A stretch of DNA of 64,000 nt from an uncultured Clostridia bacterium (GCA_944362965.1 CALVTR010000001.1:90529-154528), one strand, 5' to 3'. Positions 8,476 to 63,161 are shown, counted from the stretch's first letter. The notes: generated from the letters alone by a model not told the origin. Made by a program: numbers and translations.

Positions 8476-10395
8476 TTATACAATCGCAGTCCAATCTCGT
8501 TTATAATAAGTAGAACTTCCTAAATACTCTAAAGCATTCACAGGAATTGACGAAGCTTGAACAGTTGTTGAAGCGTAACCATTGCCTGACACCCTCCAAT
8601 TACATGTTGTATTTAGTGTTATCGTTTCAAGCCCTGTTACACTTTGGAAAGCATAGTAGCCTATAAATGTAACGCTTTCTGGGATTACTAGAGAAGTTAC
8701 AGCAAATCCACAATAATAAAAGGCAAGTCTACCTATACCTGTCACATTTGAAGATAGTTCTATCGTGATATTATCAAGCCCTGCGAAAGCACCAATTTCA
8801 ATATACGTGATTATACTATAAAGATAGCTTCCTTCGGTTATTGTTGTATTATCTGTTGCACGTATTAAAGCCATATCTTCAAGTCTAATTAAGCAGTTCA
8901 GTTCATTACCATCACTATCTCGACTTGTAAAGTATTGATTTTCAGGGTCTACATATATAGTTTTGATATTTTGGCACCCTGAAAATGCATATTCACTAGT
9001 AATATCATTAACATTTTTCCCTATATGGATGTTGCTAATAGATATGTTATTATAGTATTTATCATGACTATCTTCTTCAAGATATGATCTAAATAAATTT
9101 GGTATAGTTTCAACACTATCACCAAAAATGAAATTTGTTATAGTAGAGCCACTAAAAGTAGCAATGGTTGTTCCATCATACAAATAATTAAGACTCGCAT
9201 TTTTTGCATTATAATAAATTGTGTTTACACTTAAATCACTAAAAGCCTTGTGACCTATCCTTTCTACATTTGCACCTATAGTCAATTCTTCAAGATTGTC
9301 GCAAGCACAGAAAGCATATCCATCTATATCTGTCACGCTATCTGGAATTGTTATATTTGTTAAACTACTGCAATAATAGAAAGCATAATTACCTATACTT
9401 GTCACACTGTCTGGAATTACTATACTTGTTAAACTATCGCAACCAGAGAAAGCACGATCTCCTATACTTGTCACACTAAAAGTATAAGGTGATACTTCTG
9501 AGTTATAGGTTTCTGTTGGTATTTTTAATCCAATCACACTTGTATCACAGCCTGTAACACTTGCTGTGCCATCTGTGCCATCTTCGTTATAAGAATATGT
9601 TAAATAATTATCTGGCTCTTCAAATATTGCATAATAGGTTGCGGCAGAAGTATCGTCATATGTAAATTCATAATCAAAACTTGTTGATACAAGCTCTCCT
9701 GTTTCACTACCTGCTCTCCAACCTAAGAAAGCTGCTCCGTCAACGTCTGTAAAGTTGGCTGAAAGTGCAACTTGCTGCCCTATTTCTACTACTCCACCAC
9801 CTGTTGCTGTGCCTAGTGTTTCATTAGTCGATATCGCTGTCACTGATAGTGCTTCTTTTATTGTGATAACTATTTCTCCTAAATCTATGCTGTCAGAGTT
9901 TGGTGCCATGATTGTCAGCTCAAGTGTGCCGTCTGCTTGCGTAGTTGCAGGGTCAAATTCTTTAAAATCGTCACCATCTGAATCGGTTAAGTCATTCACA
10001 CCAATAATTCCGCTATGCCTTTCTGACACGCCGTCATTTGTAAGGGAGCTCAAGTCTACGTCCGCTATTTGCCAATAACTATCCGTTGCATTGATTATAT
10101 CAAAATACAAGGTAAAAGAGCCGTGACCATTCTCTTCTGTGTTTAAAGACGTTAAATCCATATTAAAGTTTCCGTTTATGTAACCCGGTGTAAAACTATC
10201 AACAACTATCTCTTCTCCGCCCGCTTCTTGATACCTGACTTCTTTAACATACAAGCTCTTGTCTGGAACTACAAAACTTAAACTTCCTTGCATGCTTATC
10301 TGTTGCTGCGTCGCTGCATATACCCCAAGTATCAATACACCAAGCATAAGCATAAATAACGAAATACATGATATTAGTTTTAATTTTAATGACAT
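8476..10395 (-). CDS. secreted/surface BspA-type leucine-rich-repeat protein (locus 1)
   Basis: The likely start is the MSLKLKL Met at 10395, preceded by AAGGAGAG; the 26 codons upstream run through the leader and are rejected. N-terminal K-rich and hydrophobic signal. The C-terminal half has ~23-aa repeats (SLTSIVIPDSVTSIGNYAFYYC). Confidence 0.85.
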   Translation of the reverse strand: MSLKLKLISCISLFMLMLGVLILGVYAATQQQISMQGSLSFVVPDKSLYVKEVRYQEAGGEEIVVDSFTPGYINGNFNMDLTSLNTEENGHGSFTLYFDIINATDSYWQIADVDLSSLTNDGVSERHSGIIGVNDLTDSDGDDFKEFDPATTQADGTLELTIMAPNSDSIDLGEIVITIKEALSVTAISTNETLGTATGGGVVEIGQQVALSANFTDVDGAAFLGWRAGSETGELVSTSFDYEFTYDDTSAATYYAIFEEPDNYLTYSYNEDGTDGTASVTGCDTSVIGLKIPTETYNSEVSPYTFSVTSIGDRAFSGCDSLTSIVIPDSVTSIGNYAFYYCSSLTNITIPDSVTDIDGYAFCACDNLEELTIGANVERIGHKAFSDLSVNTIYYNAKNASLNYLYDGTTIATFSGSTITNFIFGDSVETIPNLFRSYLEEDSHDKYYNNISISNIHIGKNVNDITSEYAFSGCQNIKTIYVDPENQYFTSRDSDGNELNCLIRLEDMALIRATDNTTITEGSYLYSIITYIEIGAFAGLDNITIELSSNVTGIGRLAFYYCGFAVTSLVIPESVTFIGYYAFQSVTGLETITLNTTCNWRVSGNGYASTTVQASSIPVNALEYLGSSTYYKRDWTAIV

Positions 10396-10435
10396 AACAC
10401 ACTCTCCTTTTTTTGCGAGCAAGCTTCGCCTAAGC

Positions 10436-10539
10436 GAGAAGGCATAAAGGCTGATAAGCCTTTCAGAAGGCAAAAGCTTTTGCCTTGTTGTGCATTTTGG
10501 AAAAATGCACGTGCCTTCTCACACTCGCGGCGAAGCCGC
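10436..10539 (-). promoter_or_regulatory. structured 5' leader of locus 1 (four-way junction plus GC hairpin)
   Basis: Outer stem GAGAAGGCA/TGCCTTCTC (10436-10444 / 10512-10520) encloses three hairpins at 10446-10463, 10467-10486 and 10490-10510. A GCGGC-GAA-GCCGC hairpin follows at 10527-10539. Confidence 0.55.
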
Positions 10540-10581
10540 TCGCTCGCGATAGCCGCTTGACGCGTCTATCTTTATGCTATT

Positions 10582-10609
10582 AGTATACCCCCCCCGCAAC
10601 CCACGTCAA
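10582..10609 (-). promoter_or_regulatory. promoter P1 with a G8 tract in the spacer
   Basis: Minus strand reads TTGACG (10604-10609), TGGGTTGC, G8 (10588-10595), then TATACT (10582-10587), giving a 16-nt spacer. An A/T-rich UP-like region lies upstream. Confidence 0.65.
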
Positions 10610-10707
10610 GCAAATTTAACAAATTTTTTAAATTTTTTTGAAAAATTTTGTGCCTTAGGCACTTTTTATCGTGTGACTTGTCTATAATGCCGAGTTTATC
10701 TGTTCCA

Positions 10708-10826
10708 AGAGAGCGGTGATAAAGTTTATTTTTGAAACAACCTAATCTGACAATCGTCAAACATTTGGTTTGCGGACAGTGATGCAAACTAAGTTTGCCG
10801 GATAGTCGTCGAACATTTGGTTCGGT
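10708..10826 (-). repeat. copy of the hairpin-repeat family, inverted relative to the 21.4-21.8 kb array
   Basis: 10774-10821 matches the reverse complement of 21494-21541 at about 45/48 nt. Contains two AAAC/GAAC-CAAAT-GTTT/GTTC-GACG hairpin units. Confidence 0.7.
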
Positions 10827-10874
10827 GGCTTAGCCACTTTTTATCGACAAGTGTATCTATAACAAAGCATTTTT

Positions 10875-11704: not shown

Positions 11705-12034
11705 ACCCCTGCTCCCTTTAAGGTATATCTTTTGCAAACAAAATAAAAAGTATACAAGGTCGACAAAAAATTATAAAAAAATTAAATAAATTAAATTAAA
11801 AATCAATATTTAAATAAATATTTAAATATAAAATTATAAAAATTTAAAAATAATTAAATAATTAAATAAAAACAATATAGAAACTTATAAAAAAATTAAA
11901 AAAATCAATAAAATAAAATTAAAAATTGAAATAATTATAAAAATTTATAAAAATTAAATAAAAAAACAATAATTATTTATTTTTTAAATATTATTGCTTT
12001 TTTAAATTATTTTTAATTATTATTTTTATTTATT

Positions 12035-12760
12035 TTAAGATAATCTTTCTATTTCTTCTTTCATATCATTTAAAATTCTTTTTTCTAGGCGAGAAATATA
12101 GCTTTGACTTATTCCAAGTTTTAAGGCAACTTCTCTTTGCGTCAGTTCTTGATGCCCCATAAGTCCATAGCGGAGAATCATTATCTCGCGTTCACGATGA
12201 TTGAGTTTGCCAATAAGCTCGTTTATTATCTGCTTATCGGCAGGCTCGTCCACCGCCTGCGTTATAACATCATCTTCACCCGGCAAGATATCTGCAAGCA
12301 CAAGTTGATTGCCATCACTATCTTCACAAAGCGGTTTGTCAAGGCTTATATCATTCTTTATCTTAGACGTTTTTCTGATTTGCATAAGAATTTCATTCTC
12401 TATACAACGCGACGCATAGGTTGCAAGCCTGATATTCTTATCAACCTTAAAAGTTCTAACTGCTTTGATAAGCCCTATTGCACCTATTGAAATCAAATCT
12501 TCAAACTCGATGCCCGTATTTTCAAACTTCTTTGCAATATAGGCAACAAGTCTTAGGTTGTGTTCTATAAGCTTTTCGGTGGCAGTCATATCACCGCTTT
12601 CTTTTAGGATGAGAAGTCTGTTTTCTTCGTCCGGTTCAAGTGGTGGCAAAAACTCATCATTTCCACAGACATAGCACACAATATTCTTTACATTTAAAAG
12701 ATTGTGCTTATGAAACAAATTATAGACAAAAAGTTTTATTTTAAAGATAAGATTTTTCAT
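12035..12760 (-). CDS. sigE: sporulation sigma factor SigE (pro-sigmaE)
   Basis: A pro-sequence followed by YVCGNDEFLPPL, HNLRLVAYIAKKFENTGIEFEDLISIGAIGLIKAV and ATYASRCIENEILM. Confidence 0.92.
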   Translation of the reverse strand: MKNLIFKIKLFVYNLFHKHNLLNVKNIVCYVCGNDEFLPPLEPDEENRLLILKESGDMTATEKLIEHNLRLVAYIAKKFENTGIEFEDLISIGAIGLIKAVRTFKVDKNIRLATYASRCIENEILMQIRKTSKIKNDISLDKPLCEDSDGNQLVLADILPGEDDVITQAVDEPADKQIINELIGKLNHREREIMILRYGLMGHQELTQREVALKLGISQSYISRLEKRILNDMKEEIERLS

Positions 12761-19979: not shown

Positions 19980-21196
19980 TTATTCAACAATAGCCCGCCA
20001 ATATCTATTGTAATAAGTATCTGTTAAATAAGTCAATGCATTTGTTTGAACTTCTGAAGCCGTTGACGTTGCTATAATTGATGAATCTGAGAAAGAACTG
20101 CTACTTGCTATTTCCCAGTTATATGGCGTATTGAATGTTATTGCTGTGAGTCTACCGCAACCATAGAAAGCTTCCCTACCTATACTTGTCACACTGTCTG
20201 GGATTGTTATACTTGTTAAACTACTGCAACCTCGGAAAGCACCTTCAAGTATACTTGTCACTCCTTCTGGGATTGTTATACTTGTTAAACTAGAGCAATT
20301 TTGGAAAGTAAAACTACCTATACTTGTCACTCCTTCTGGAATTACTATACTTGTTAAACTAGAGCAATTTTGGAAAGTAAAACTACCTATACTTGTCACT
20401 CCTTCTGGAATTACTATACTTGTTAAACTATCGCAACCAGAGAAAGCACGATCACACTAAATTCGTAAGGTGAACGAGAAGTTCTATATATTGTTGACGG
20501 GGTTACTAATTCTCCTGTTGCACTTGTATTACAATCTGATACTCTTGCTGTGCCTGGTGAAGTTGTATAACTATATTTTAAATTACTATTTGCTGTTTCA
20601 AATATTGCATAATAGGTTGTTGGTGAATTCTCTGTGAAGGTGAAATTATAGTCTGTAAGAGTTGATACAAGCTCTAGTATAGGAGATCGTGCTTTCTCTG
20701 GTTGCGATAGTTTAACAAGTATAGTAATTCCAGAAGGAGTGACAAGTATAGGGTCAAATTCTTTAAAGCCGTCTTCATCTGCGTCGGTTAGGTCATTCAC
20801 GCCAATTATCCCGCCATGTCTTTCTGACACACCATCATTTGCAAGAGCTCCTAAATCTACACTTTCTATTGACCACAGAATATCCGTTGCATTGATTATA
20901 TCAAAATACAAGATAAAAGAACCGTGACCATTCTCTTCTGTCTCTAAAGACGTTAAGTCCATATTAAAGTTTCCATTTATGTAACCCGGTGTGAAGCTAT
21001 CAACAACAATCTCTTCACCACCCGCTTCTTGATACCTGACTTCTTTAACAAACAAGCTTCTATCAGGCACGACAAAGCTTAAATTGCCTTGTATGCTTAT
21101 ATGCTGTTGCGTCGCTGCATATACCCCAAGTATCAACGCCCCTAGCATAAGCATAAATAATGAAATTGTGGATATCAATTTTACTTTTAATGACAT
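19980..21196 (-). pseudogene. rearranged BspA-type LRR surface protein paralog (locus 2)
   Basis: The N-terminal 150 aa are near-identical to locus 1. After KEFDP, about 85 codons are replaced by an antisense LRR unit. A 13-nt deletion at the FSV/DRAFSG junction causes a frameshift and stop at 20423. The LRR C-terminus continues in ORF 19980-20399. Confidence 0.8.
20386..20752. repeat. perfect 68-bp inverted repeat flanking a 231-bp segment
   Basis: 20386-20453 is the exact reverse complement of 20685-20752, checked base by base. Both arms encode one LRR unit (DRAFSGCDSLTSIVIPEGVTSIG). Confidence 0.9.
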
Positions 21197-21354
21197 AAAT
21201 CTCTCCTTAACGCAAAAATTTTATTTTTATTTTGTTTAATCACTGCTGTTTTTATGCAAATTTCGACCTTACTTGCATATCTTAGCCACATTTTAGCATT
21301 TTTGCAATCCCTTTGTCTCAAGGGTGACGGCACGATGCCGTCAAATCACGACCC

Positions 21355-21780
21355 GAATTTTCGAACCATATGTTCGACGATTGTTCGATTAAGAGTGTCT
21401 AAGTTTTAAACTACATCTCCGCTCTCTAAGCCTAACGCTTGGCGGTTATACGGCAGAGTGAGAATAAGAGATAAGCTATGTCTCCGCTCTTAAGCCAAAT
21501 GTTTGACGGCTGTCCGGCAAACTTAGTTTGCATCACTGTCCGATAAAGTGAATATAAGAAACAAACTTTATCTCCGCTCTCTAAGCCTAACGCTTGGCGA
21601 CTATCCGGCAGAGTAAGTTGAAAAAATAAACTTTGTCGCCGCTCTCAAACCTTACGTTTGACGATCGTCCGCGAGCCAGATGCTCGGCGTTTGTCCGGCA
21701 GAGTGACATAAAAGAATAGTCTTTATTCCCGCTCTCTTTAACCATATGTTCGACGGCTGTCTATGTGAGCGAGCTTTGTC
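21355..21780 (+). repeat. tandem array with alternating 65/90-bp units
   Basis: Unit heads T(C/T)(T/G/C)CCGCTCT at 21416, 21481, 21571, 21636 and 21726, giving spacings of 65, 90, 65 and 90. Each unit carries a 4-5 bp hairpin with a 5-nt loop followed by G(G/A)CG. Confidence 0.8.
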
Positions 21781-21788
21781 GCAGATAT

Positions 21789-21874
21789 GAGAAGGCATAA
21801 AGGCTGACAAGCCTTTTGGAAGGCAAAAAGTTTTTGCCTTCTTGTGCATTTTGAAAAAATGCACATGCCTTCTC
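21789..21874 (-). promoter_or_regulatory. locus 2 copy of the four-way-junction leader
   Basis: About 90% identical to 10436-10520, with the same outer stem GAGAAGGCA/TGCCTTCTC and three hairpins. Here about 590 bp of repeats separate it from the gene. Confidence 0.55.
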
Positions 21875-21928
21875 ACACTCGCGGCGAAGCCGCTCGCGAT
21901 GGACATAGTATGTCCATCTTTTGCTATT

Positions 21929-21956
21929 AGTATACCCCCCCCGCAACCCTTGTCAA
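21929..21956 (-). promoter_or_regulatory. promoter P2 with a G8 tract in the spacer
   Basis: Minus strand reads TTGACA (21951-21956), AGGGTTGC, G8 (21935-21942), then TATACT (21929-21934), giving a 16-nt spacer. Confidence 0.6.
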
Positions 21957-22112: not shown

Positions 22113-22230
22113 TTTCTCCGCCGCAGGCAAGCGAATGAGGGATTTTTATTAAAAAATCACAATAGGCAAAATATGTTTTGCCTATAAAAACTCTAGTGAG
22201 TTTTTCATTCGCTTGCCTGCGGCGGAGAAA
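22113..22230. other. nested palindrome D: 26-bp outer stem plus three hairpins
   Basis: TTTCTCCGCCGCAGGCAAGCGAATGA (22113-22138) pairs perfectly with 22205-22230. Inner hairpins lie at 22141-22158, 22162-22185 and 22187-22204. Confidence 0.7.
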
Positions 22231-22336
22231 ACTCAAAACCAGTTCTGTTCTATAAATTCCATCCTTATTATCTCTTCACCTTTCACTCTTCATTTTTCAC
22301 TCCCGCGTCAGCGGTATGTCGCCAAGCGTCCGGCTT

Positions 22337-26000: not shown

Positions 26001-26119
26001 GGGCGGCGACAAAATTTTAAAACAAAAGTTTTAAAATTTAAAAAGAGAAACTTTTTATCGCTCCGAGATAAAAAGTTTCTCTTTTTTGCTCGCTTTTTCA
26101 AAGCGAGCGGTCGCCGCCC
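26001..26119. other. nested palindrome A: 10-bp GC outer stem plus three perfect hairpins
   Basis: GGGCGGCGAC (26001-26010) pairs with GTCGCCGCCC (26110-26119). Inner stems of 12, 16 and 9 bp lie at 26012-26039, 26044-26082 and 26088-26108. Confidence 0.7.
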
Positions 26120-37645: not shown

Positions 37646-37787
37646 CCGCACCTTAGCGGAAGCTGTTTGACAAATTCTTGTCAAACCTTGCTTTTAAATA
37701 GCTCCCTAGAAAATCTAGGGGGCTATCTAAAAACAATAAAGCTTAAACGCTATTTGCGTTTAAGCTTTGCTTCCGCTAAGGTGCAGG
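37646..37787. other. nested palindrome B: 16-18 bp outer stem plus three hairpins
   Basis: 37648-37663 pairs with 37769-37784, plus 2 further bp beyond a bulge. Inner hairpins at 37665-37686 (9 bp), 37698-37726 (12 bp with one T-G) and 37738-37768 (13 bp). Confidence 0.7.
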
Positions 37788-39880: not shown

Positions 39881-40861
39881 CTAAGCCACTTCACCTATAT
39901 CTATAGTGACATTTTTTGTTATTTTACAAGTCAATATACTTTCATCGTCTGCTGTCGATGTTTCTATCTCATCATTTTCAACAGCGTGAGCAGTGATGTC
40001 GTAATCTACTTCGTCTGATGGCGTGACAATAGCCGTTGCATTTGTTGATGAAGCCGTGCTTGGGGATGAAGAAGCTTGCACATATGAAAGATATCCAATA
40101 ATCGCAGTGCCATTTGCATAAACAGTATATGAGTGAACATATCTACGTGGCTCTACGGAACTAGAATTTTCTTCCTGAGTTGAAACTTCATCTTGGAAAG
40201 GATTAGAAGCAAGTGTGAGATATAAATTAGAGCTTACATAAACTTCTGCACTGCCTTTTTCTTCAATAGTATAATACATTGAACTTCCTAAATCAGTTTT
40301 GAAACAAATCTCAATATCGCTCCTATAATTATTTATAGTAACCTTATACATAGTCGTTTCTGACAATTCTATGAAAATATTATTTAAGCTTATTGTTGTT
40401 GAGCTTGTTGCTTGAATATTAATATATATTGTGCCAGAAACCCCATCATATGTTGCTACTTCAGAAATTGGAACACCATCACCAGCTATTGTTCCGCTGA
40501 CGGTTAATGTTGCATTTGATATGTTAGATTGACTGCTTGCACTGTATGCTGTTGTGGTTGTATTGACAACATCTATTGCAACAGTTACTTTCCCACTATC
40601 TGTTAAAACTGTGCCGATATCAAGATCAAAGCTGTCTTGAACAAAGCCTGGAAAGAAATTTCCCATAGTCTGACCATCTGTCATGTCGGTGGATATCCTT
40701 ATGTCTTTTACATACAACGTTGAACCTTCTATATTAAATTGCACATTTCCTTTTAAATTTATGGTTATGTTACCAGTTACAGCCAAAACTCCCACCAAAA
40801 GCATACTAAATACTAACACAAAAGCTGAAATCATAGATACTAATTTTACTTTTAAACTCAT
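39881..40861 (-). CDS. secreted surface protein paralog without LRRs (locus 3)
   Basis: The N-terminal MSLKVKLVSMISAFVLVFSMLLVGVLAVTG and the following beta-rich domain (LYVKDIRIS...FFPGFV) are homologous to loci 1 and 2. The C-terminal part is Ser/Thr-rich. Confidence 0.8.
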   Translation of the reverse strand: MSLKVKLVSMISAFVLVFSMLLVGVLAVTGNITINLKGNVQFNIEGSTLYVKDIRISTDMTDGQTMGNFFPGFVQDSFDLDIGTVLTDSGKVTVAIDVVNTTTTAYSASSQSNISNATLTVSGTIAGDGVPISEVATYDGVSGTIYINIQATSSTTISLNNIFIELSETTMYKVTINNYRSDIEICFKTDLGSSMYYTIEEKGSAEVYVSSNLYLTLASNPFQDEVSTQEENSSSVEPRRYVHSYTVYANGTAIIGYLSYVQASSSPSTASSTNATAIVTPSDEVDYDITAHAVENDEIETSTADDESILTCKITKNVTIDIGEVA

Positions 40862-40926
40862 CTTTTCACTCCTTTTCTTTTTTATTTTTAGTTAAAGCTT
40901 TGTGAACATAGCTACGTGCTTTGCCC

Positions 40927-41032
40927 GTGCCTTAAGAAAACGTGCGAATTTTTAATTCGCACAGGCTGCAAATATTTGCAGCCTAAGAAACTCATTCGAG
41001 TTTCTGTTTTCTTAAGGCGCGGCCAAAGCCGC
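40927..41032 (-). promoter_or_regulatory. structured 5' leader of locus 3 (four-way junction plus GC hairpin)
   Basis: A 15-bp outer stem (40927-40941 / 41006-41020, one T-G pair) encloses hairpins at 40942-40962, 40963-40984 and 40986-41005, with 0-1 nt linkers. A GCGGC-CAAA-GCCGC hairpin lies at 41019-41032. Confidence 0.6.
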
Positions 41033-41076: not shown

Positions 41077-41103
41077 ATTATACCCCCCCGCAACCCACGT
41101 CAA
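41077..41103 (-). promoter_or_regulatory. promoter P3 with a G7 tract in the spacer
   Basis: Minus strand reads TTGACG (41098-41103), TGGGTTGC, G7 (41083-41089), then TATAAT (41077-41082), giving a 15-nt spacer. The upstream ~35 nt are identical to P1. Confidence 0.65.
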
Positions 41104-41378: not shown

Positions 41379-43388
41379 TTAATTATCATTAAGAACAATG
41401 GCATTTCTTCTATCAATGTCGTAGAAGATTTTATCAACCTCAAGTTTTTTAGAAATTCCCATAGGTTCAGGAGCTGATGACTTAACCATACATTTAGTTG
41501 CATAGAACGGTGTCATGGTGTCCATCATGATTTCCTTTCTGAATATCTTTGCAACAACCGTCCATTGTTTAAGCTGTCTTAATTGTTGTTTATCAAGCAG
41601 CGGTCTGCGTGTTCGCTGAACAGAAGTCGAGATATTTTCTCCAGAATCTGATTCTTTTGTATTACGCGACCTATTCTCTTCTTCGTGGAATACCGTTGTT
41701 TCACCGCAGGCTTCTGAGAAGGCTTGAATAGTTGACGGGTCTTCTGAGCCTAAGAACACTTCCATCTGGAAGTTACCACGAATGTTTTGAGCTTCATCAG
41801 CACCATACTTAATATCAAGTTGTTTATATGATTGAAGAACTATTTCAAAGAACACGTTTCTTGAACGAGCAACTGTAACCATAGTTCCAAACTTAGGAAC
41901 AGGTGGCATATTACCAAACTCATCAAGAATGAAATATACAGGACGTTTAAGTTTTCCTGTCTTGCCATTCTTAGGATTTACTGTTCTGTTTGCGACATCG
42001 ACAAGCACCTTATAGAGCTGACTTATACAAAGCACGCCTAGTGGGTGACGTTCAGTTTTGTGGTCTGGAATACGAATGAAGAATGCTGTTGGACGTTCTG
42101 GGATATCTTCAAAATCAATATCCGTTCCGCTTGTCATATAGAAGATACCTTCGTCGCCGAGCATATTACCAATAGAAGAGCCAAGTGTTGAAATAAATGA
42201 CCTTTGTGTAACAGGGCTGGCAAGACAAACTGTTGACATAAGGTCATGCACGGTGCTAAGTCTTGGGTCTCTGCCTTCGCTATATTTTGTCAAAGTTTTA
42301 AGAGCATTTTCTCTATCACCCGCAGGATCACGGCGCATACAAATCTTATATAGATTATAGAAATTAAATTTGTCAAGAGTCATGCCCAGTCTCGGGTCGC
42401 GGCTATCTTCAAGCATACCTTCCATAATACCAAGAATAAAGTCACGACAACCATCAGGCCACATCTTATCTTTGGCATTAGGATCATCTGGAATAAGAGA
42501 AAGCGAAATGTTTTTTAAGTTAGATTTTGCTTCATCTTCAAGTTGAACACGTCTTGCTTCAAGTTCCTGTTGAAGGATGTCGTTATTTGGGAAAGCTTTT
42601 CCTTCAAAACCAAACCAAGTGTCGCCATAGGTTGCTCCACCAATTTGATCTGGCGAAAATCTTTTATAGCCCATCTCTTCAGGGGTTGCATTGCTTATCT
42701 TCTTTACTTCTTTTGCAAGATTTCCTGCTCTTTCATAAGTTTTATAAGCAATTTCCATAGGATTCCAACGTGATGACGCATAAGGATTTTCAAGGTTTAG
42801 AACGATAATATTATAGCCTTCTTCTCTTAAAGCGTTTGCATTATCGGCGTAAAGTTCGCCCTTAGGGTCAGTCATAACAAGGCTAGGCTTTTGCCCAGTG
42901 TGAGCAAGTATTCTAATTGTTGGATTTGCGAAAATCTGTGTCTTACCAGTACCAGTAGTACCTAAAACCAATGCGTGAGTTTCAGGTTTCATATTGACTT
43001 CATAATGCCCGCCAACTTCCTTATTTCTAAAAACAAAGCCTGTTTTCTTAAGCGATGGAAGATTGTTCCATGTTGAAAAGATAAGGTCTGGGTCAGTGCG
43101 TAATCTTTCAGTTGTGATAAATTTAGAGTCAAAGTTGATATCAGTCTTTTCGCCTTCAGCCGTAGTTCCAACATTAGAGCCCATACCTTTTTTCTCTTTT
43201 GATAAGAGCGCTGTGCATAGTCCTGCAATAACGCCTATCGCAAGCATAGCAAGTGATATAACATTGACAAGTGCATCCGTTATCTCTCTTGTGCCTTCTT
43301 GGGTAAAATAAGAAATTGCAACACCAATTCCATAACCAAGAATGCCAAATACCAACATTAAAATGACACTAAGCTTGAATTTCTTCAT
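41379..43388 (-). CDS. VirD4/TraG-type type IV coupling protein (membrane-anchored P-loop ATPase)
   Basis: Two N-terminal TM helices, Walker A LGTTGTGKTQ, the DPKGEL motif and Walker B YFILDEFGNM. Confidence 0.85.
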   Translation of the reverse strand: MKKFKLSVILMLVFGILGYGIGVAISYFTQEGTREITDALVNVISLAMLAIGVIAGLCTALLSKEKKGMGSNVGTTAEGEKTDINFDSKFITTERLRTDPDLIFSTWNNLPSLKKTGFVFRNKEVGGHYEVNMKPETHALVLGTTGTGKTQIFANPTIRILAHTGQKPSLVMTDPKGELYADNANALREEGYNIIVLNLENPYASSRWNPMEIAYKTYERAGNLAKEVKKISNATPEEMGYKRFSPDQIGGATYGDTWFGFEGKAFPNNDILQQELEARRVQLEDEAKSNLKNISLSLIPDDPNAKDKMWPDGCRDFILGIMEGMLEDSRDPRLGMTLDKFNFYNLYKICMRRDPAGDRENALKTLTKYSEGRDPRLSTVHDLMSTVCLASPVTQRSFISTLGSSIGNMLGDEGIFYMTSGTDIDFEDIPERPTAFFIRIPDHKTERHPLGVLCISQLYKVLVDVANRTVNPKNGKTGKLKRPVYFILDEFGNMPPVPKFGTMVTVARSRNVFFEIVLQSYKQLDIKYGADEAQNIRGNFQMEVFLGSEDPSTIQAFSEACGETTVFHEEENRSRNTKESDSGENISTSVQRTRRPLLDKQQLRQLKQWTVVAKIFRKEIMMDTMTPFYATKCMVKSSAPEPMGISKKLEVDKIFYDIDRRNAIVLNDN

Positions 43389-43565
43389 ACAACTCCCCCA
43401 ATATAATTTGTTCCTTCTTTACAAAAAATATAAGAAAAAACAATCTTTTCATAATTAAAATAACACTTTTAGTGAGTTTTGTCAATTAAATATGGTTACT
43501 ATAATAATAATTTTAAAATGATACTATTAATACCCTTTTTTGCTAAATAACTTTTTAGTAGTCAA

Positions 43566-43600
43566 TTAAAAATGGCACTTTTTACTTAGTGCCATTTTTA
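43566..43600 (-). terminator. terminator after the 163-aa membrane protein gene
   Basis: AATGGCACT/AGTGCCATT 9-bp stem. Confidence 0.6.
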
Positions 43601-43612
43601 TTTATTATAAAG

Positions 43613-44104
43613 TTAATTTATTTCAACTTCGTCATCTTCAAGAGGTTTGTTAATTTTTTGTTCGCCTTTGTTTTCAGCAATTTTCATACTCATTTGAGCA
43701 CCAAAAAGTGCTATAGTAGAAATAAGTCCTGCACCCATTCCGCCCAATAATCCAATGGAAAATACACTTTGACTTGCATATGAAGCATTGTATTGATTTA
43801 AAACATCGGTTGGGACAGAAGTGTCTGCATTCATGTAATCATGAACATTTAAATTTTTTAAGTTGTCTATCTCACTTTGATATTCTTGTGATGTAATCTC
43901 GCCATTGTTATACTGTTGATTAAGGTCGTCAATCTGCACTTGTTTATACAAAATATTAGCATTTTCATAATTTGTTTTTGACTTTGCATCTTCTTGAATC
44001 CCTGCATTTATTAAACAACCGATAAATGAAGCACCCAAAATCGTGGCTCCAACAAACAACCCAATTTTTGCAATTTTTAGTATTTTTTCACTCTTTTTTA
44101 TCAT
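43613..44104 (-). CDS. two-TM membrane protein, unknown function
   Basis: Hydrophobic segments at the N- and C-termini with a polar Q/N-rich middle. Confidence 0.55.
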   Translation of the reverse strand: MIKKSEKILKIAKIGLFVGATILGASFIGCLINAGIQEDAKSKTNYENANILYKQVQIDDLNQQYNNGEITSQEYQSEIDNLKNLNVHDYMNADTSVPTDVLNQYNASYASQSVFSIGLLGGMGAGLISTIALFGAQMSMKIAENKGEQKINKPLEDDEVEIN

Positions 44105-44329
44105 ACTATCTCCTATACTTAAATTTTAACATACAATGGTGTATTTGTCAATATACACATTTTTAAAAATTATCACTATTTGTTTTAAAAATAAAAAAAG
44201 TCAAACAGCATCATTTATCTCCACTAATTTAATAAGAGTATCCTTTTTTGCTATTTGACTTTAAACATAAATTTTAATTCTAATATATTTAGTTTTTAAT
44301 TCTAATATATTTTAGTTTATAAATAGAAA

Positions 44330-46505: not shown

Positions 46506-46581
46506 GGAAGTTTAGCTCAGCTGGGAGAGCATCTGCCTTACAAGCAGAGGGTCATAGGTTCGAGCCCTATAACTTCCACCA
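46506..46581 (+). tRNA. tRNA-Val (anticodon UAC) with encoded CCA
   Basis: Acceptor stem GGAAGTT/AACTTCC, D-loop AGCTCAGCTGGGAGAGC, anticodon loop CTTACAA, T-arm GGTTCGAGCCC and a 3' ACCA. Confidence 0.95.
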
Positions 46582-46693: not shown

Positions 46694-47419
46694 TTACTCT
46701 TTCCCTTTGTTTTTCTTATCTTTAATTTTCTTTTCTAATTTGTCAGCAAGTATATAGATAATGTATAGGTCAATTAAGCAAACTGATATAAAAACAAACC
46801 AATCAATGATTGTTAGCGCTGACCAATCTATTAGGTCGCTGCCAAGAAAACAGGTCATAGCCACGCAGACAGTTCGGCAAAATACAACTATCAGTAGGAA
46901 CTCCCACCAACGCATCTTAGTTATGCCAGCAACCATGCAAAGTGCGTCATCTGGAAAGAATGGAAATAAGAACATAAGCGGCAAGTATATCTTAGATTTT
47001 ACTGCTACTAAGTCTTGAGCTTTCTTTAGACTTTCTTCCCCTACCATTCTAATAGCTATTTTTTCTCCGCCGAATCTACCGATTAAAAACATAGCCATAC
47101 TTGATAGAACAACGCCAACAGAAGATATGACAAAGCCCTGCCATGCTCCAAATAGGATGATTGAAACAATAATAAAGGTCATGCTTGTTGCTGGGACTAA
47201 GCATAGCAACGTTGTCACTAGAACCTGTAATAATATAAACACTACCCATCCCCAAGCGCCACAGTCTGCTATTAGCGTTCGAAGACCATCAACTGATGTT
47301 ATACCAAGACTATCAAGAGTAATCCATGCTATGCCAGAGATAAAAACAATGCATGCAATTAGAATAACCCATTTAACCCACGTTTTCAGTTTCATTAGTG
47401 TCCTCGTCTTCAATAACAA
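46694..47419 (-). CDS. TVP38/TMEM64 (DedA-related) family membrane protein
   Basis: Polytopic protein with a pattern like the SNARE-associated/TVP38 family (LLQVLVTTLLCLVPATSM...GRFGGEKI). Overlaps the upstream gene; an alternative start lies at 47395. Confidence 0.65.
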   Translation of the reverse strand: MLLKTRTLMKLKTWVKWVILIACIVFISGIAWITLDSLGITSVDGLRTLIADCGAWGWVVFILLQVLVTTLLCLVPATSMTFIIVSIILFGAWQGFVISSVGVVLSSMAMFLIGRFGGEKIAIRMVGEESLKKAQDLVAVKSKIYLPLMFLFPFFPDDALCMVAGITKMRWWEFLLIVVFCRTVCVAMTCFLGSDLIDWSALTIIDWFVFISVCLIDLYIIYILADKLEKKIKDKKNKGKE

Positions 47420-48401
47420 TCTTTGATATTCCTAAGTCCTTAAGCATTTTAGTGTAAATCGATTTTCGGCTCTCAAGAGCTTTGTAGTATTTGCCAAGTA
47501 TGATTTTATTTGACAAACCTATTCCTTTAATCATAAACACAATTAAAGTCACAAGATTGATAAGCAGGCTTAAAACAGTGTTCCAACCTAAAGAATTAAA
47601 CGTTGGAAAGATTAAGCAGCTAACAAACCCTGCTGAAATTAAGCCTGTAGCGACATACTTCATTACACTTGCAGTAAGTTCTCTTTTTTCGTCAAAGAAG
47701 GCAGATGCAGGCTTAGTTCTTGTTTCTTCCACGTCTGATAATAAATTCCCCCAATAGATAGGCTTATAGTGCAGCTTTATTGTGCGAAACTTATACTCGT
47801 CAGTATTTAGCTCTTCACTCAGCTTTGAGATTTCATTAGCGTCACCTTTGTTTACAATTAGACTAATGCGTTTTCTGTCCTTCTTGACGTAATCTAATTG
47901 TTTTAAGAGTTCTTGCTTTTTCTGGGTTGTTTTATCAAACTCTAATTTCTTCTTGTCGTAATTTTTGTCACTTTTTTGCGGATCAACGCAGTGCAGCTTT
48001 TCATATAAAGATTTTATTTTATCTTCATAAATATCAAGTTTAATTTGATAGTTATAGACTTCCTTAAGCCAATTTTCCGCATCTGCAACCTTGTCCAGTG
48101 CATAGATAGTTTTTCTTTGCCCGTCAATCTCGTCTTGTATATCAGTAATCTTCTTTTTCTTTAAATCTCTACCTTTCTGTATGAGATACATGCCAAACAA
48201 AACTGAAAGTTCTGATGCAAGCAATATCGAAAAGCTTGCCCAATATGAGGCAGTAAGTATCTTGCTAAAATCAAAGCCTACCGTAATAAACGACATAAAA
48301 CCGTTAGCAATAAGAACTAAGATTATTATGAGCGTTCCAGAAATGCCACGAAGTAAATCCTTTTTGTTAATACTACTTATCTTGTCTTTCAGATTGTTCA
48401 T
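47373..48401 (-). CDS. membrane protein with a long central coiled coil
   Basis: Two N-terminal and about three C-terminal hydrophobic helices around a K/E-rich heptad region. Confidence 0.55.
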   Translation of the reverse strand: MNNLKDKISSINKKDLLRGISGTLIIILVLIANGFMSFITVGFDFSKILTASYWASFSILLASELSVLFGMYLIQKGRDLKKKKITDIQDEIDGQRKTIYALDKVADAENWLKEVYNYQIKLDIYEDKIKSLYEKLHCVDPQKSDKNYDKKKLEFDKTTQKKQELLKQLDYVKKDRKRISLIVNKGDANEISKLSEELNTDEYKFRTIKLHYKPIYWGNLLSDVEETRTKPASAFFDEKRELTASVMKYVATGLISAGFVSCLIFPTFNSLGWNTVLSLLINLVTLIVFMIKGIGLSNKIILGKYYKALESRKSIYTKMLKDLGISKIVIEDEDTNETENVG

Positions 48402-48897
48402 TTACCTTAACCCCACTTTTAGTCTTAATCCACTGAGCGACTCCATTAAAACCTAAGCCAACGCACATTGAGATTGACACAACCATGAGAGTGCCACGAA
48501 GTGATACAACTTGTTTTTCAATCATAGCAACAATAAACCATGCAAGCACAAATGGAGCTACAAAGCATGCATTTCTAAACATCTCTTGTTTTGCTTCCCA
48601 TTTTTTCTTTTGTGTAACAAGTTCGGATTTTTGATTATTGTCCACGCACTCAATACATTGATTAGTTATATCGTTTATCTTCTTTTTTAGGTGTCGCCCA
48701 TAAAAGAACACGGCTATAACCACCATAAGAGCGACAACAAATATCGCACTGCAACTGACCTTGTCCCACACGCTTGTTTGCTCGCTTATGAGAGTATCAA
48801 TTAAAAATGCATAGAGTGCATAGCCACCTGGAACGATATAACAAAAAACTCTGTATAACCATGTAAACAGAGTTAGTTTCCAATTCTTTTCTTTCAT
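48373..48897 (-). CDS. four-TM membrane protein
   Basis: 174-aa ORF with four hydrophobic segments, overlapping both neighbouring genes. Confidence 0.55.
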   Translation of the reverse strand: MKEKNWKLTLFTWLYRVFCYIVPGGYALYAFLIDTLISEQTSVWDKVSCSAIFVVALMVVIAVFFYGRHLKKKINDITNQCIECVDNNQKSELVTQKKKWEAKQEMFRNACFVAPFVLAWFIVAMIEKQVVSLRGTLMVVSISMCVGLGFNGVAQWIKTKSGVKVNEQSERQDK

Positions 48898-48900
48898 TTT

Positions 48901-49515
48901 TTACTCCACTATAACTCGTCTTGCTTTCTTGACTTTTTTAGACTTTGTGGCTGGCTGTGTTTGTGTTTCTAACTCTTTTTGCTCTTCTGTTGTCACCTGT
49001 TCGGGCTCTTGCGTTTCTTCGCTTACAGGCTCAATTTCAGGCTCATTTTTGCCTTCTTCTAGTGTATTTTGAGCTTCTTCAATTTTTGAGTTTAAGTCGT
49101 CAAGCAATTCTTGTGCACTCTCGCCTTCTGTTATAAGTTTATCGTAGAGCGCAACCTTTATCTTTTGAGCTTTCTTTAAAAGTTTTTGTATGTAAATTTT
49201 TAATTCTTCTTTCGTTTTTTCGGTTTGTTCATTTAGCAGCGTTTGCAATGACAACTGAAATTCGCTTATTGCTGATGTAACTTGAGCTCTTAGTGTTTCA
49301 AACGAAATTTGCAGCGGTGTTCCATTCTTTTTGTTGATTCTGCCCTGAACACATACAAGTATGAGTTTAGCAATAAAAGTAAGTATTGCAATTATACCAC
49401 TTGTTCCGCCAAGCACGCCTAAAAGCTTGTCCCAATTTTGTGTTATAAAATCGCTAGCTTCTGTAACCCACTGTGCCTGTAATAGTAAACCTATCATAGT
49501 CCCTCCTCCTTCCAT
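48901..49515 (-). CDS. membrane-anchored coiled-coil/acidic protein
   Basis: One TM helix near the N-terminus, then a coiled coil and an E/Q/T-rich tail ending in a basic KKVKKARR. Confidence 0.55.
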   Translation of the reverse strand: MEGGGTMIGLLLQAQWVTEASDFITQNWDKLLGVLGGTSGIIAILTFIAKLILVCVQGRINKKNGTPLQISFETLRAQVTSAISEFQLSLQTLLNEQTEKTKEELKIYIQKLLKKAQKIKVALYDKLITEGESAQELLDDLNSKIEEAQNTLEEGKNEPEIEPVSEETQEPEQVTTEEQKELETQTQPATKSKKVKKARRVIVE

Positions 49516-49928
49516 AACTTAATAAAAAAGTCCAACTTGGTGCTGAGCTCTTCTACTTTACTTTTAAGTTCTTTTATTGTGTCCCCCTGTTCTTCAATGA
49601 TTGATTTTAAAGCGTCAACTTCGGGTATTGCTTTAATCTCGTTATCTGTGTCTTGAATAATAAGTCTGTCGCATGGTATACGTTTAACGAGCGTGCCTTG
49701 ATAGTATATTTCAACATTTGTTTCAAGCACTCCATCAATGAACACTTCACTTGGCAAGGCAAAAGTATAATTTGCTTTGATTTTCGCACTTTTGTTACCA
49801 TTTTTAAAGCACAGATACACGTCATATTTATTGTCAATGTTGCGAACAAGAGTTATTATTTCATTGCAGACTATCGTTTTCTGTGACCAAAATCCCCTAT
49901 TATTTTCTATTCTTAGTTCCATATTCAC
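49494..49928 (-). CDS. phage hypothetical protein
   Basis: 144-aa ORF translationally coupled to its neighbours, with a C-terminal coiled coil. Confidence 0.5.
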   Translation of the reverse strand: MNMELRIENNRGFWSQKTIVCNEIITLVRNIDNKYDVYLCFKNGNKSAKIKANYTFALPSEVFIDGVLETNVEIYYQGTLVKRIPCDRLIIQDTDNEIKAIPEVDALKSIIEEQGDTIKELKSKVEELSTKLDFFIKLWKEEGL

Positions 49929-50257
49929 TCCTTAACTGCTCTAGGTTCTTTACCTAAAAGCTCTCTTAATTCATTATGGAGCTCAACAAATTCGGCTTTT
50001 CGCTCTTCGATATCTGGCACGACTTCGCCTGCCATATCTTGAATAATATCTTGGTCAAGCTGAGTTAAACGTTCTTGAATTTCATATTTTCTTTTATTGC
50101 CCAATTCTTTTTGAGTTGGCTCAATTTTTTGAATTTGAAATCTTCTGCCTTGCTCGTCTGGCTCGAGTTCAACAATCGTAAGTCCGTTTTGATTACAATA
50201 ATTCGCTCTTGCTGAATATTCGCCGTCTAAATAAAAAATATCTCCTACATTATACAT
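49925..50257 (-). CDS. phage hypothetical protein
   Basis: The start is taken at MYNVGD after AAGGAG, directly downstream of the fibre gene stop. Confidence 0.5.
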   Translation of the reverse strand: MYNVGDIFYLDGEYSARANYCNQNGLTIVELEPDEQGRRFQIQKIEPTQKELGNKRKYEIQERLTQLDQDIIQDMAGEVVPDIEERKAEFVELHNELRELLGKEPRAVKE

Positions 50258-50268
50258 AATTTCTCCTT

Positions 50269-51255
50269 TTATTTGCCTATAGCAACCCAATAAACATCAA
50301 CAGTAGAACTTGCTGTTATTTTAAAACCTGTTAAATTTGGATTACTAATTGACAAATCATAATTCGAAGCCTTACTGAAAGAAACTGGGGACACAATTAT
50401 AGACGAAACACTTTCAGTATAAGGTGTTTCATAGTTCGCAGTATAATTAAGAGCCCCAATAACAATCCCCCAGTTAACAATAGTTTCTCCTATTTTTACT
50501 GAATTAGTTCCTTGTTGAATTAAATTTATGATTTTATTGTTTAAGTTATTGAACTGCGTTTGTGGGTCACTGTCAAAGTTTAAATTTTGTTGTAATTCTC
50601 CACCAACATTGACTGCGGTTTTAGTTTCAACAGCAGAATCTACTTCCGTCTGCGTCACATAACCTGCTCCATTCGTAAGCTGATTATTATTTGTTGGAAG
50701 CTGTGACGTAGTGGCATACCCTGCACCATTTGAAAGTTGTGAGTTATCTGTAGGTATGGTTGGCTTGCCTGTTAAGTCTTCATAAGAACCACTTGTTGCA
50801 ACTGAAGCAAGAGATGATACATCTGCTTTTAAATCTGCATCCCATGTAGTTTGTGGTTGTCCACCTACAATAACAGTCGTTCCACCTTCAGTTAGAGTTT
50901 GCGGTGTTAGGTTTCCGTCGTCACCAACAAGCATTACTTTGCCTGCATTTGCGATACCTTGATTTTTGTCTAGTTTGTCAGTTTCAAGATTGGTTATATC
51001 AGTCGTATTTGATTGAACGCCACTTTGCAATGTTGATACATTATCTTCCAGAGTTGACACATCAGTCTTGAGCTGTGCAATATCACTTGTGTTTTGTGCA
51101 ACCTGCTCTGTCATATTGTCCTCGACAACATAAGTTGTGTCCTTAGGTGAATATGTGTAAACTATGCTATTAACCGTTATAGTCCCGTTTTCTTTTAACT
51201 CGTCAAACTGCTCTTTTGTTAGTTTAACGACACCTTTATATAGATTGTTGCTCAT
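50269..51255 (-). CDS. phage tail fibre protein
   Basis: Coiled-coil N-terminal part plus two N-x-QL-x-NGAGY-x-T repeats typical of phage tail-fibre repeats. Confidence 0.7.
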   Translation of the reverse strand: MSNNLYKGVVKLTKEQFDELKENGTITVNSIVYTYSPKDTTYVVEDNMTEQVAQNTSDIAQLKTDVSTLEDNVSTLQSGVQSNTTDITNLETDKLDKNQGIANAGKVMLVGDDGNLTPQTLTEGGTTVIVGGQPQTTWDADLKADVSSLASVATSGSYEDLTGKPTIPTDNSQLSNGAGYATTSQLPTNNNQLTNGAGYVTQTEVDSAVETKTAVNVGGELQQNLNFDSDPQTQFNNLNNKIINLIQQGTNSVKIGETIVNWGIVIGALNYTANYETPYTESVSSIIVSPVSFSKASNYDLSISNPNLTGFKITASSTVDVYWVAIGK

Positions 51256-51433
51256 CTTCGTTTATCTCCTTAGGTAATTCTTCATCACTCTCAATATAAG
51301 TGTATTTATTAGGAATATCTATTGCTTCAACATACTTCTTGCCCGTTTCGTTTTGAATAATATACTTATTAGCGTCACTGTATGTCTTTATAAGTTGTCT
51401 GTCGTTTACAATTATTGTTTCTTGTTTAATCAT
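51236..51433 (-). CDS. small phage protein
   Basis: 65-aa ORF overlapping both neighbouring genes. Confidence 0.45.
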   Translation of the reverse strand: MIKQETIIVNDRQLIKTYSDANKYIIQNETGKKYVEAIDIPNKYTYIESDEELPKEINEDEQQSI

Positions 51434-53262: not shown

Positions 53263-53263
53263 A

Positions 53264-54676: not shown

Positions 54677-54704
54677 ATTTTCTCCTTAAATTAAAAAAGC
54701 AAGA

Positions 54705-55726: not shown

Positions 55727-55743
55727 GCTCCCTCCTTTTTATT

Positions 55744-55773
55744 ATTATAGTATTTTATCATAAAATTTGTCAA
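55744..55773 (-). promoter_or_regulatory. internal sigmaA-type promoter in front of the ImmA-like gene
   Basis: Minus strand reads TTGACA (55768-55773), an 18-nt spacer, then TATAAT (55744-55749), followed by an AAAGGAGGGAG RBS. Confidence 0.55.
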
Positions 55774-55874
55774 GTACAAGATTTAATTTTATAAGAAATG
55801 GAATTTTGCCCAATATTTTTGCGATTTTTGCACTTTTTATGCAAATATTTAAAAAATAATATCAACTTTCCCCT

Positions 55875-56363: not shown

Positions 56364-56408
56364 AAACTAATGATAATATATTGGCAATATTTTGTCAACG
56401 GAAAATTT

Positions 56409-56960: not shown

Positions 56961-57005
56961 AAAACCTCTTATTTTATTTTAATAAATAATTAGTTTATAT
57001 GTCAA

Positions 57006-62141: not shown

Positions 62142-62189
62142 ACTTTCTCCTTATATAAGAATAAAGGCTCCCACTTTGAGAGCCTTATA

Positions 62190-63146
62190 TTATTCTAAAT
62201 CATCCTCTGGTTCAGTTGGAGTTGCAGCTTTCTTTGTAACAACATAGATACCTTCAATCTTGCCATCTTTACCATTAGGGAATACAAAAGTGTCCCACAT
62301 AGAACGGTTTGCATACCAGTCGCCATCACCTTCAGTATGTTCGCCTGCTTTCTTGATATAGATAGCATTTGTTTTAGGAACAGTTTTAACAACGTCAGTT
62401 GAAGCAAAAACAATAGCAAGTGCTTTTGCATCAGATGCAGCCTCGAAACCATCAGTGTAATCAAATTTAGAGTAGAATCTCTCATCATCAATAACTTCGA
62501 AGAGATAAACTCCGTCAATATTGGTTACGCGGGTTTCAATACCTATTCCGCCGTCTGCAATAGTTGTAAGTTCTACTTTAAGCTTACTCTCTGTTGAAAG
62601 TTCAAGCATATTCATTATTTCGCTTGTCACATAAGCAATAAGAGAGCCTCTTGCTATGTATCTACGAAGTTTGCCTTTAAGCATATAGTTTTTAATAGTT
62701 GAAAGAACATTGTCCTTTGTAAGAGTAGACACATCAAGTTCTTCGGTAAGTGTATTTGTGTTTGCAACGTTATATACTTGTTCAAAGAAACGTGCATCAA
62801 CTTCTGGAGCTTCTTGAGTTGCAGTAAACACCTTTGATACATTATCTATAGATGCAGTTCCATTAGATTCGTCAATGTCTATTCTATCTACAAGGAAAGA
62901 TATGTCACGATCATGTGCGATTGTGTAATCAACGTCAGATTGAGTTACGTTGCCCTTATTCCAACCACCATCTCGTGAGTGTGCTTTGAACCCGCTTGTT
63001 GCAGCTTGTGTAAAGTGGAGTGTTTTAGCTCCTGTCCATTCAACTGAATCTGCATCAGCAATAAATGGACTTGTGATTGTGTTTTGATTTAAGATTTCTA
63101 AAATCTCTGGTTGCCATTTTTCAGCATAATTTATTGTATTTGCCAT
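62190..63146 (-). CDS. phage major capsid protein
   Basis: 318 aa, immediately downstream of the scaffold gene, with a strong RBS. Size and position are typical of a capsid protein. Confidence 0.65.
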   Translation of the reverse strand: MANTINYAEKWQPEILEILNQNTITSPFIADADSVEWTGAKTLHFTQAATSGFKAHSRDGGWNKGNVTQSDVDYTIAHDRDISFLVDRIDIDESNGTASIDNVSKVFTATQEAPEVDARFFEQVYNVANTNTLTEELDVSTLTKDNVLSTIKNYMLKGKLRRYIARGSLIAYVTSEIMNMLELSTESKLKVELTTIADGGIGIETRVTNIDGVYLFEVIDDERFYSKFDYTDGFEAASDAKALAIVFASTDVVKTVPKTNAIYIKKAGEHTEGDGDWYANRSMWDTFVFPNGKDGKIEGIYVVTKKAATPTEPEDDLE

Positions 63147-63161
63147 TTTTATTCTCCTTTA

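Follow-up and report, generated by a model that had tools for sequence, protein, structure and literature searches.

The 5' leader of a predicted surface-protein gene in an uncultured Clostridia bacterium folds into an elaborate four-way junction, and we asked what such a structure is doing there: is it a regulatory RNA dedicated to that gene, or one instance of something more widely spread in the genome? The gene lies at 8476..10395 on the minus strand of the 64,000-nt stretch of DNA that we analysed (hereafter the window), and its product is a secreted BspA-type leucine-rich repeats (LRR) protein (Pfam LRR_5, E = 1.6e-44). An initial annotation had placed a near-perfect four-way junction between the promoter and the ribosome binding site (RBS) of this gene, here called locus 1, and had suggested that the junction might work as a switch.

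RNAfold of the 104 nt at 10436-10539 on the minus strand returned the structure that had been described: a hairpin GCGGC-UUC-GCCGC (hairpin B) came first, followed by an outer stem with three hairpins inside, at -47.5 kcal/mol compared with -26.2 +/- 3.0 kcal/mol for 200 dinucleotide shuffles (z = -7.2). The junction alone, at 10436-10520, has a dG of -38.7 kcal/mol, and linkers of 1-3 nt separate its helices, as had been noted. From promoter to RBS, the order in the leader is hairpin A, hairpin B and then the junction element (Table 1). The three hairpins measure 9, 8 and 7 bp in transcript order (6, 8-10 and 9 bp in the initial annotation). The structure is real and its first description was accurate, with one correction: the GCGGC hairpin 5' of the junction appeared in the local fold but not in the minimum-energy fold of the full 186-nt leader (-85.4 kcal/mol, z = -7.2), where it gives way to a long-range helix that lengthens the outer stem, and in which the entire leader becomes one rod with the junction as its cap. 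The leader is putatively transcribed, given a consensus match to a sigma-70-type promoter, and this promoter-like block recurs at two further loci in the window (loci 2 and 3).

Table 1. Positions in the window of leader features, junction copies and promoter elements.
Feature	Position (nt)	Strand	Context or remark
Four-way-junction element, copy 1	10436..10520	-	5' leader of 8476..10395; covariance-model match E = 2e-7
Copy 1 outer stem, 9 bp	10520-10512 / 10444-10436	-	Strands GAGAAGGCA/UGCCUUCUC
Copy 1 first hairpin in transcript, 9 bp	10510-10490	-	
Copy 1 middle hairpin, 8 bp	10486-10467	-	
Copy 1 third hairpin, 7 bp	10463-10446	-	
Hairpin B, GCGGC-UUC-GCCGC	10527..10539	-	Local fold; competes with long-range closing helix 10547-10529 / 10430-10415
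Long-range closing helix, 3' strand GGCGAAGCUUGCUCGC	10415..10430	-	Directly upstream of RBS; 186-nt fold
Hairpin A, 5'-proximal in leader	10548..10570	-	Tip varies among otherwise 99%-identical strains
RBS AAGGAGAG of gene 8476..10395	10409-10402	-	Unpaired in minimum-energy leader fold
Promoter-like site TTGACG-16-TATACT, sigma-70-type	10582..10609	-	G8 run (10588-10595) in spacer
Junction copy 2	21788..21875	-	Far 5' leader of locus 2, downstream of promoter 21956-21929
Junction copy 3, 25-bp outer stem	22113..22230	.	After ftsW/spoVE terminator (22365-22344), about 160 nt upstream of promoter P2
Junction copy 4, hairpins 9, 20, 12 bp	26001..26119	.	30 nt past intrinsic terminator (26178-26149), 145 nt upstream of mraY
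Junction copy 5, 137 nt	37648..37784	.	Between SipL-domain gene and spoIIR
Junction copy 6, outer stem 13 bp, hairpins 8, 9, 9 bp, linkers 0-1 nt	40929..41018	-	Locus 3 leader
Locus 3 promoter-like site, G7 in spacer	41077..41103	-	G8, G9 in two other assemblies
Poly-G tracts in promoter spacer	41083-41089 (G7), 10588-10595 (G8), 21935-21942	-	Loci 3, 1, 2
Covariance-model matches	10427-10529, 21780-21883, 22121-22222, 26001-26119, 37652-37780, 40925-41022	Both	

The proposed switch rested on the motif AAGGCA/UGCCUU, which is indeed duplicated in the outer stem and middle hairpin of loci 1 and 2. A leader-specific riboregulator of this kind would alternate the 5' strand of the outer stem between two partners and thereby control the LRR gene; the mutual exclusivity of hairpin B and the long-range closing helix would suit it, as would a leader structure that stops about 5 nt upstream of the RBS. 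The energetics of the alternatives, however, argue against a built-in switch. When the 5' outer strand was made to pair with the 3' arm of the middle hairpin, the fold reached -30.6 kcal/mol, and with the other AAGGCA alternative -24.5 kcal/mol, which are 8.1 and 14.2 kcal/mol less stable than the junction. These two pairings would also cross, and the helices of the junction have a mean pair probability of 0.95. The duplicated motif is missing from locus 3 and from the versions in the relatives L017, L021 and L034. We found no conserved unpaired binding core (linkers of 0-3 nt differ between versions and the loops vary) and no expression platform, as no U-tract terminator follows the element and the RBS is not sequestered. 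Rfam 15 at gathering thresholds had no match at any element in the window and 14 related loci, and at E <= 10 only chance-level matches, in agreement with the first impression that the fold resembles no known riboswitch core. The genes downstream of the element copies do not form a single functional class, homologous cassettes exist that lack a junction, and the same architecture is found at unrelated genes, outside transcripts and with its interior flipped, as described below. Like riboswitches and other cis-regulatory leader RNAs, the element sits between promoter and RBS, is highly structured and forms a multi-helix junction; unlike them, it has no conserved junction or loop nucleotides, platform, gene-class association or Rfam match, and it tolerates inversion. 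A dedicated riboswitch for the LRR gene was rejected on the finding that the leader element is one copy of a dispersed intergenic family, and we consider control of the gene by alternating partners very improbable. A tRNA-like cloverleaf was discarded as well: ARAGORN and Rfam gave only the tRNA-Val at 46506-46581, and the loops of the element are 3-4 nt and its arms 7-20 bp.

Several of the hairpins combine an A-run, a GC core and a T-run, and a consensus scan flagged two sites as terminator-like, which would be expected if the leader attenuated transcription through a group of weak intrinsic terminators. The T-runs are paired inside the stems, however, and the sites flagged by the scan belong to the leader's antisense strand. 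The outer stem is not followed by a U-tract on either strand, while canonical hairpin-plus-U terminators, separate from the element, adjoin several copies. For lack of U-tracts we dropped the terminator and attenuator readings, which we find scarcely credible.

The junction turned out to be far from unique to locus 1. We scanned about 190 kb of sequence from the lineage for perfect Watson-Crick pairing with an outer stem of at least 6 bp enclosing adjacent hairpins of at least 6 bp, and obtained 19 closed three-hairpin elements and one weak, AT-rich two-hairpin match. The same strict scan found no closed multi-hairpin structure in ten shuffles of the window or in 133 kb of unrelated loci, which excludes chance as their source. 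In a relaxed RNAfold scan, all matches below -35 kcal/mol were three-branched, and the two-branch matches were all weak and mostly within ORFs of at least 150 aa. A covariance model built from locus-3-type sequences only, and run with no filters, gave exactly six window matches at E < 0.01, each on both strands, and copy 1 was among them (Table 1). Altogether the family numbers 24 copies in about 160 kb of the lineage, six of them in the window, a density biased upward by the sampling of loci outside the window through presence of the promoter. No copy occurred in a further 41 kb or so of the organism's sequence, most of it prophage.

What unites these copies is architecture: the family is defined not by sequence but by an outer inverted repeat around three almost perfectly paired hairpins. 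The outer repeat spans 8-27 bp, the junction and linkers leave 0-7 nt unpaired per element, and the unit is 84-137 nt long, about 90 nt being typical. Every strong copy found has three hairpins, and a single copy (L007 7158-7250) has a degraded arm. Summed over the 24 elements, 85% of bases are paired, in 982 Watson-Crick pairs compared with 11 G-U pairs, and loops measure 3-7 nt, mostly 3-4. Such pairing means that both DNA strands fold equally, and the dG is nearly the same for the two strands of an element; either strand, or RNA copied from either, could adopt the four-way junction. In sequence the copies have little in common: outer stems and hairpins vary, only a loose vocabulary of hairpins recurs, and MAFFT did not align the divergent subfamilies (six members), which lack a common consensus. 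We found no transposase, target-site duplication or near-identical recent copy of the element. A miniature transposable element (MITE) was considered on account of the outer inverted repeat and rejected, as the flanks have no target duplication and the copies within the genome are highly divergent.

The copies also differ in where they lie, and the idea of an element specific to leaders did not survive this comparison. None of the 24 overlaps coding sequence, in DNA that is 14% non-coding (P about 7e-21), and within that strictly intergenic space they occupy 5' leaders, one 3' UTR, intercistronic gaps, spacers beyond terminators or upstream of promoters, and a gap between convergent terminators. 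The neighbours are unrelated in function (LRR genes, mraY, spoIIR and SRP RNA). As the initial annotation had reported, locus 2 carries a copy about 90% identical to that of locus 1 (89-94% in our comparison), and locus 3 has the same topology made from unrelated stem sequences, in the 5' leader of the gene at 39881..40861. Copy 3, by contrast, falls outside the locus 2 leader, and its homologs in L001 and L017 lie 125-200 nt upstream of the same promoter. Among the relatives, three elements are 18-25 nt from start codons inside gene strings (L001 4746, L014 4464 and L024 251), two are between divergent genes (L007 2067 and L017 3490), and one (L046 10248-10339) is placed between the terminator of a plus-strand protein gene and that of a minus-strand SRP RNA, outside both transcription units. 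Orientation is equally free: both hairpin orders relative to gene direction occur, and copies of a subfamily whose outer stems end in GAAAGU differ in whether the AT-rich hairpin comes first or last. Presence, too, is variable. The junction is missing from three cassettes that share the promoter (L024, L001 and L045, the last of a more distant species), and the spacer of L045 orthologous to the site of copy 5, between the SipL-domain gene and spoIIR, is 114 nt long and carries no element.

Relatives of these loci were found by scanning public collections for the promoter block TTGACNNGGGTTGCG6+, which led to three contigs of the Clostridia MAG CAWVLM01 and nine contigs of the metagenome assembly ERZ1090861, two of these contigs being 98-99% identical to the window; the remaining matches were GC-rich chance matches. 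BLAST of promoter plus leader found no real similarity to plasmids or phages. At least five sequence-distinct versions of the junction occur downstream of this promoter, with outer stems GAGAAGGCA, GCCUUAAGAAAAC, CUGCCCAAGAAAAC, GAGCGAAUGU and GCGAGAAU. The pairing pattern is conserved where sequence is not: aligned by sequence alone, locus 3 of the window and L021 still differ by at least six pair changes that are fully compensated, while the loops vary freely, even between close homologs. Elements are kept at orthologous sites in CAWVLM01 and ERZ1090861, and the more distant relative L046 also has a copy. One uncompensated A.C mismatch was seen, in the locus 1 middle hairpin of L056 and L057. 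The tip of hairpin A (CGCGTCAAGCG) is exchanged for another palindromic tip (CACCTTTAGGTG) in L019, L056 and L057, which are otherwise about 99% identical, and the leader of L038 joins the locus 2 junction to a hairpin A like that of locus 1. The tip swap and this mosaic suggest gene conversion among paralogous leaders.

Homologs differ not only by symmetric changes in both arms but by flipped interiors. The flanks of the element in L020 are 99% and 92% identical to those of locus 2, but its interior is 54% identical in the forward direction and 90% identical to the reverse complement, with the asymmetric loop UGUC turned into GACA. The interiors of L007 and L017 behave in the same way (28/48 forward, 41/48 as reverse complement), and the covariance model, relative to locus 3, scores loci 1 and 2 higher on the antisense strand and L020 higher on the sense strand. 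An interior flipped between 9-13-bp inverted repeats in two homologous leader pairs, together with mosaic leaders and genes for variable secreted proteins, brings to mind programmed invertible DNA (a mini-inverton) or a recombination hotspot that diversifies or phase-varies paralogous surface-protein cassettes. In invertons of the C. difficile cwpV type, a segment between inverted repeats likewise exists in both orientations; here the two orientations were found only between diverged homologs. The interior is palindromic and gives the same junction either way; a flip leaves topology, promoter and RBS as before, no promoter or terminator changes with orientation, and on/off logic is not apparent. 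Moreover, the outer repeats differ among copies and provide no shared site for a recombinase, the proteins scanned nearby included no recombinase, and elements flank housekeeping genes too. Interior orientation is constant at locus 1 in four assemblies and at locus 3 in three. Flipping of the interior is therefore not fast, which weakens fast programmed inversion in particular, and we judge a diversifying inverton or hotspot improbable.

Perfect arms and inverted spacers are, on the other hand, known signatures of template switching between short inverted repeats, which homogenises arms and inverts the spacers between them (PMC8604942, PMC7202029), so that the palindromes are probably maintained at the DNA level. 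Template switching between the arms of an inverted repeat would uphold both the perfect arms and the flip/flop interiors of this family. Our best explanation, to which we assign a probability of roughly 60%, is that the 85-nt structure at locus 1 belongs to a lineage-specific group of dispersed, REP/BIME-like palindromic repeats that are defined by structure and kept perfect by template switching in DNA. One observation counts against a repeat reading: the copies are old, divergent and without a consensus, yet almost none has decayed. This rarity of decay points to active maintenance or selection and not to neutral selfish DNA.

Combined with the three hairpins of each copy, it keeps alive a reading in which the functional form of a selected, structure-specific signal is the single-stranded four-way junction, either in RNA or in ssDNA at a replication fork. 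The invariant hairpin number fits poorly with a passive repeat and is better explained by a need for such a junction. That every strong copy found retains three hairpins (in one, an arm has decayed) and leaves 0-7 junction or linker nucleotides unpaired, that structure survives sequence turnover through compensated changes, that elements persist at orthologous sites in CAWVLM01 and ERZ1090861, and that L046 has a copy as well would all be expected of a selected shape. Against it, neither loop nor junction nucleotides are conserved, copies lie both in transcripts and in spacers that are apparently untranscribed, the orthologous spacer of L045 has no element, and template switching by itself also yields perfect pairing and flipped interiors. 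We therefore treat selection on the junction as a possible but tentative alternative. We are just as tentative about its recognition by a junction-binding or double-strand-specific protein (HU-like, RNase III or resolvase-like), for which we have no candidate, and likewise about its use as transcript punctuation, decay barrier or chromosomal signal, with the leader copy as one use of a host system. Slightly more doubtful is the boldest form of the idea: a previously undescribed, shape-defined class of bacterial element, a perfect four-way junction that would be actively kept, flippable and read by a junction-specific host factor as a general punctuation, stability or chromosomal signal, and that would have been co-opted in LRR leaders together with a poly-G phase-variable promoter.

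Returning to the repeat reading, the closest known systems are the REP, BIME and REPIN sequences of Enterobacteria and Pseudomonas, for which roles as mRNA decay barriers and in local 3' UTR regulation have been proposed (PMC3116915, PMC3733652, bioRxiv 10.64898/2026.03.23.713779). These, like the junction elements, are abundant GC-rich palindromes confined to extragenic DNA, and they lie in either orientation, in repeat mosaics, UTRs and intercistronic gaps. REPs, however, are single imperfect hairpins of 20-40 nt with a family consensus, a GTAG/CGTC tag and a link to the RAYT transposase, whereas the junction element is a closed three-hairpin unit with essentially perfect pairing, and has neither consensus nor a GTAG or CGTC head; no Y1 transposase (RAYT/TnpA-REP) was seen among the 18 proteins scanned from about 200 kb of genome. 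BOX elements of S. pneumoniae (PMC3049150) and Correia repeats of Neisseria (PMC2229807) are small modular repeats, often placed in the 5' leaders of surface-protein genes; they are co-transcribed, with predicted stable structures that would affect mRNA processing or stability. Both resemble the junction family in these respects. They differ in that conserved modules of sequence, or inverted repeats at the ends, define the families (Correia also has target duplications), and neither is a closed perfect four-way junction. In form only, the family recalls the inverted terminal repeat (ITR) of the parvovirus AAV, a T-shaped three-way structure at the end of a linear genome whose flip and flop arise by terminal resolution: in each, an outer stem surrounds small palindromes and the interior occurs in two orientations against constant flanks. 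The junction element, however, is internal, chromosomal and four-way. Mobile GC clusters and hairpin elements of AT-rich organelle genomes are intergenic and lineage-specific (PMC2800124, PMC4524435). They share with our elements GC-rich palindromic units in extremely AT-rich spacers, but are organellar, belong to sequence-defined families and form single or double hairpins. In the window the contrast in composition is marked: intergenic spacers are extremely AT-rich (6% GC at 11750-12049) next to about 40% GC in genes, and the GC-rich palindromic modules stand out against this background. Our search of the literature returned no description of intergenic repeats with a four-way junction or cloverleaf, and the element is best filed as an architecturally distinctive extragenic palindromic repeat.

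What began as a tempting "new riboswitch" call has become a testable repeat family in which architecture is conserved and sequence is not. Selection on the shape would imply that this uncultured Clostridia lineage has a so far unknown system for recognising junctions; without such selection, the family would offer a clean natural example of palindromes shaped by template switching, with both arm homogenisation and spacer inversion. In practical terms, elements of this kind cause metagenome assemblies to break at the loci concerned, and searches for non-coding RNA that rely on structure can be misled by them.

Within the LRR leaders, the element would be merely co-transcribed as a closed and very stable domain. 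It would at most protect or insulate the mRNA, as has been proposed for REP/BIME, BOX and Correia sequences, and would neither sense a ligand nor toggle between folds; as an RNA domain it is probably either inert or stabilising. A more plausible seat of on/off control for the LRR genes is the poly-G tract in the spacer of the promoter. The locus 3 spacer has G7 in the window, G8 in L036 (8160) and G9 in L055 (1257), giving lengths of 15, 16 and 17 nt, differences that homopolymer sequencing error could also produce; leaders and proteins are otherwise identical among the three, and L036 is 98-99% identical to the window. Other cassettes carry G7-G9 (for example L034 3245), with G8 present in the distantly related L045 too. 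Phase-variable promoters are classically laid out with such a tract in the spacer, as in Mycoplasma vlp and the opa/porA-type systems of Neisseria. By this layout, at least ten secreted-protein genes look like targets of slipped-strand phase variation, and the spacer is more plausibly the control point of the LRR and other secreted-protein paralogs than the junction is. The N-terminal domain of these secreted proteins is very rare, with 10 clusters among 5.8 billion proteins.

The loci themselves vary in gene structure. A signal-peptide and N-terminal module and an LRR (or DUF6273) part form one ORF of 639 aa at locus 1; at locus 2 (19980-21196, minus strand) the same modules are separate ORFs of 257 aa and 139 aa, as they are in several relatives (L043, L046 and L049), and the split could be a gene fission, a pseudogene or a two-gene arrangement. 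A module TTTGACGGCATCGTGCCGTCAC...TGCTAAAAT (21290-21345, minus strand) that lies near the locus 2 start codon and is conserved at homologs of this locus in L017, L020 and L044 holds an extended -10-like site, GAGACA-18-TAAAAT preceded by TG, and could act as a second promoter, proximal to the gene.

Directly upstream of locus 3 lies a gene for a TraG/VirD4-type coupling protein (41379-43388, minus strand); no further conjugation genes were identified among the ORFs examined. Beyond it, a 677-bp segment at 43554-44231 with a gene for a predicted 163-aa membrane protein and its own terminator is missing from the 98-99%-identical L036, and a direct repeat AGCAAAAAAGG is common to both of its boundaries. 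We considered this indel as a mobile element tied to the junctions and set it aside as an unrelated small membrane-protein gene between direct repeats. The part of the window from about 46700 to 64000, adjoining the tRNA-Val, is probably a prophage: the syntenic contig L054 has terminase, SPP1-type portal and capsid-related genes around the counterpart of the gene at 62190..63146. It contains no junction elements.

Other repeats share the AT-rich spacers. Divergent GC-rich units of about 64 nt stand in tandem at 21380-21760 (minus strand) and 10690-10830 (plus strand) of the window, at L045 9480-9700 and L017 5730-5800, and in L020 and L038, in either orientation and upstream or downstream of the poly-G promoter. 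Each opens with a small covarying hairpin (TCGAAC/GTTCGA or TCAAAC/GTTTGA) after CG; they have no Rfam match and are too divergent for Tandem Repeats Finder, which misses them. A purine-rich heptad run (GTGAAAA GTGAAAG GTGAAGA G...) occupies 22270-22302 (minus strand), in the spacer adjoining copy 3, and similar heptads occur at L001 300-345, just downstream of the poly-G promoter, and at L038 2300-2340, upstream of the 16S rRNA promoter. A second repeat family, with units of about 55 nt (CTGATAAACTnnnCGTTATAGAC...GTGCCTAAGGCAC), forms arrays directly upstream of the 16S rRNA promoter (L038 2140-2480 and L001 100-330), and one such unit, at 10650-10700 of the window, abuts the promoter of locus 1.
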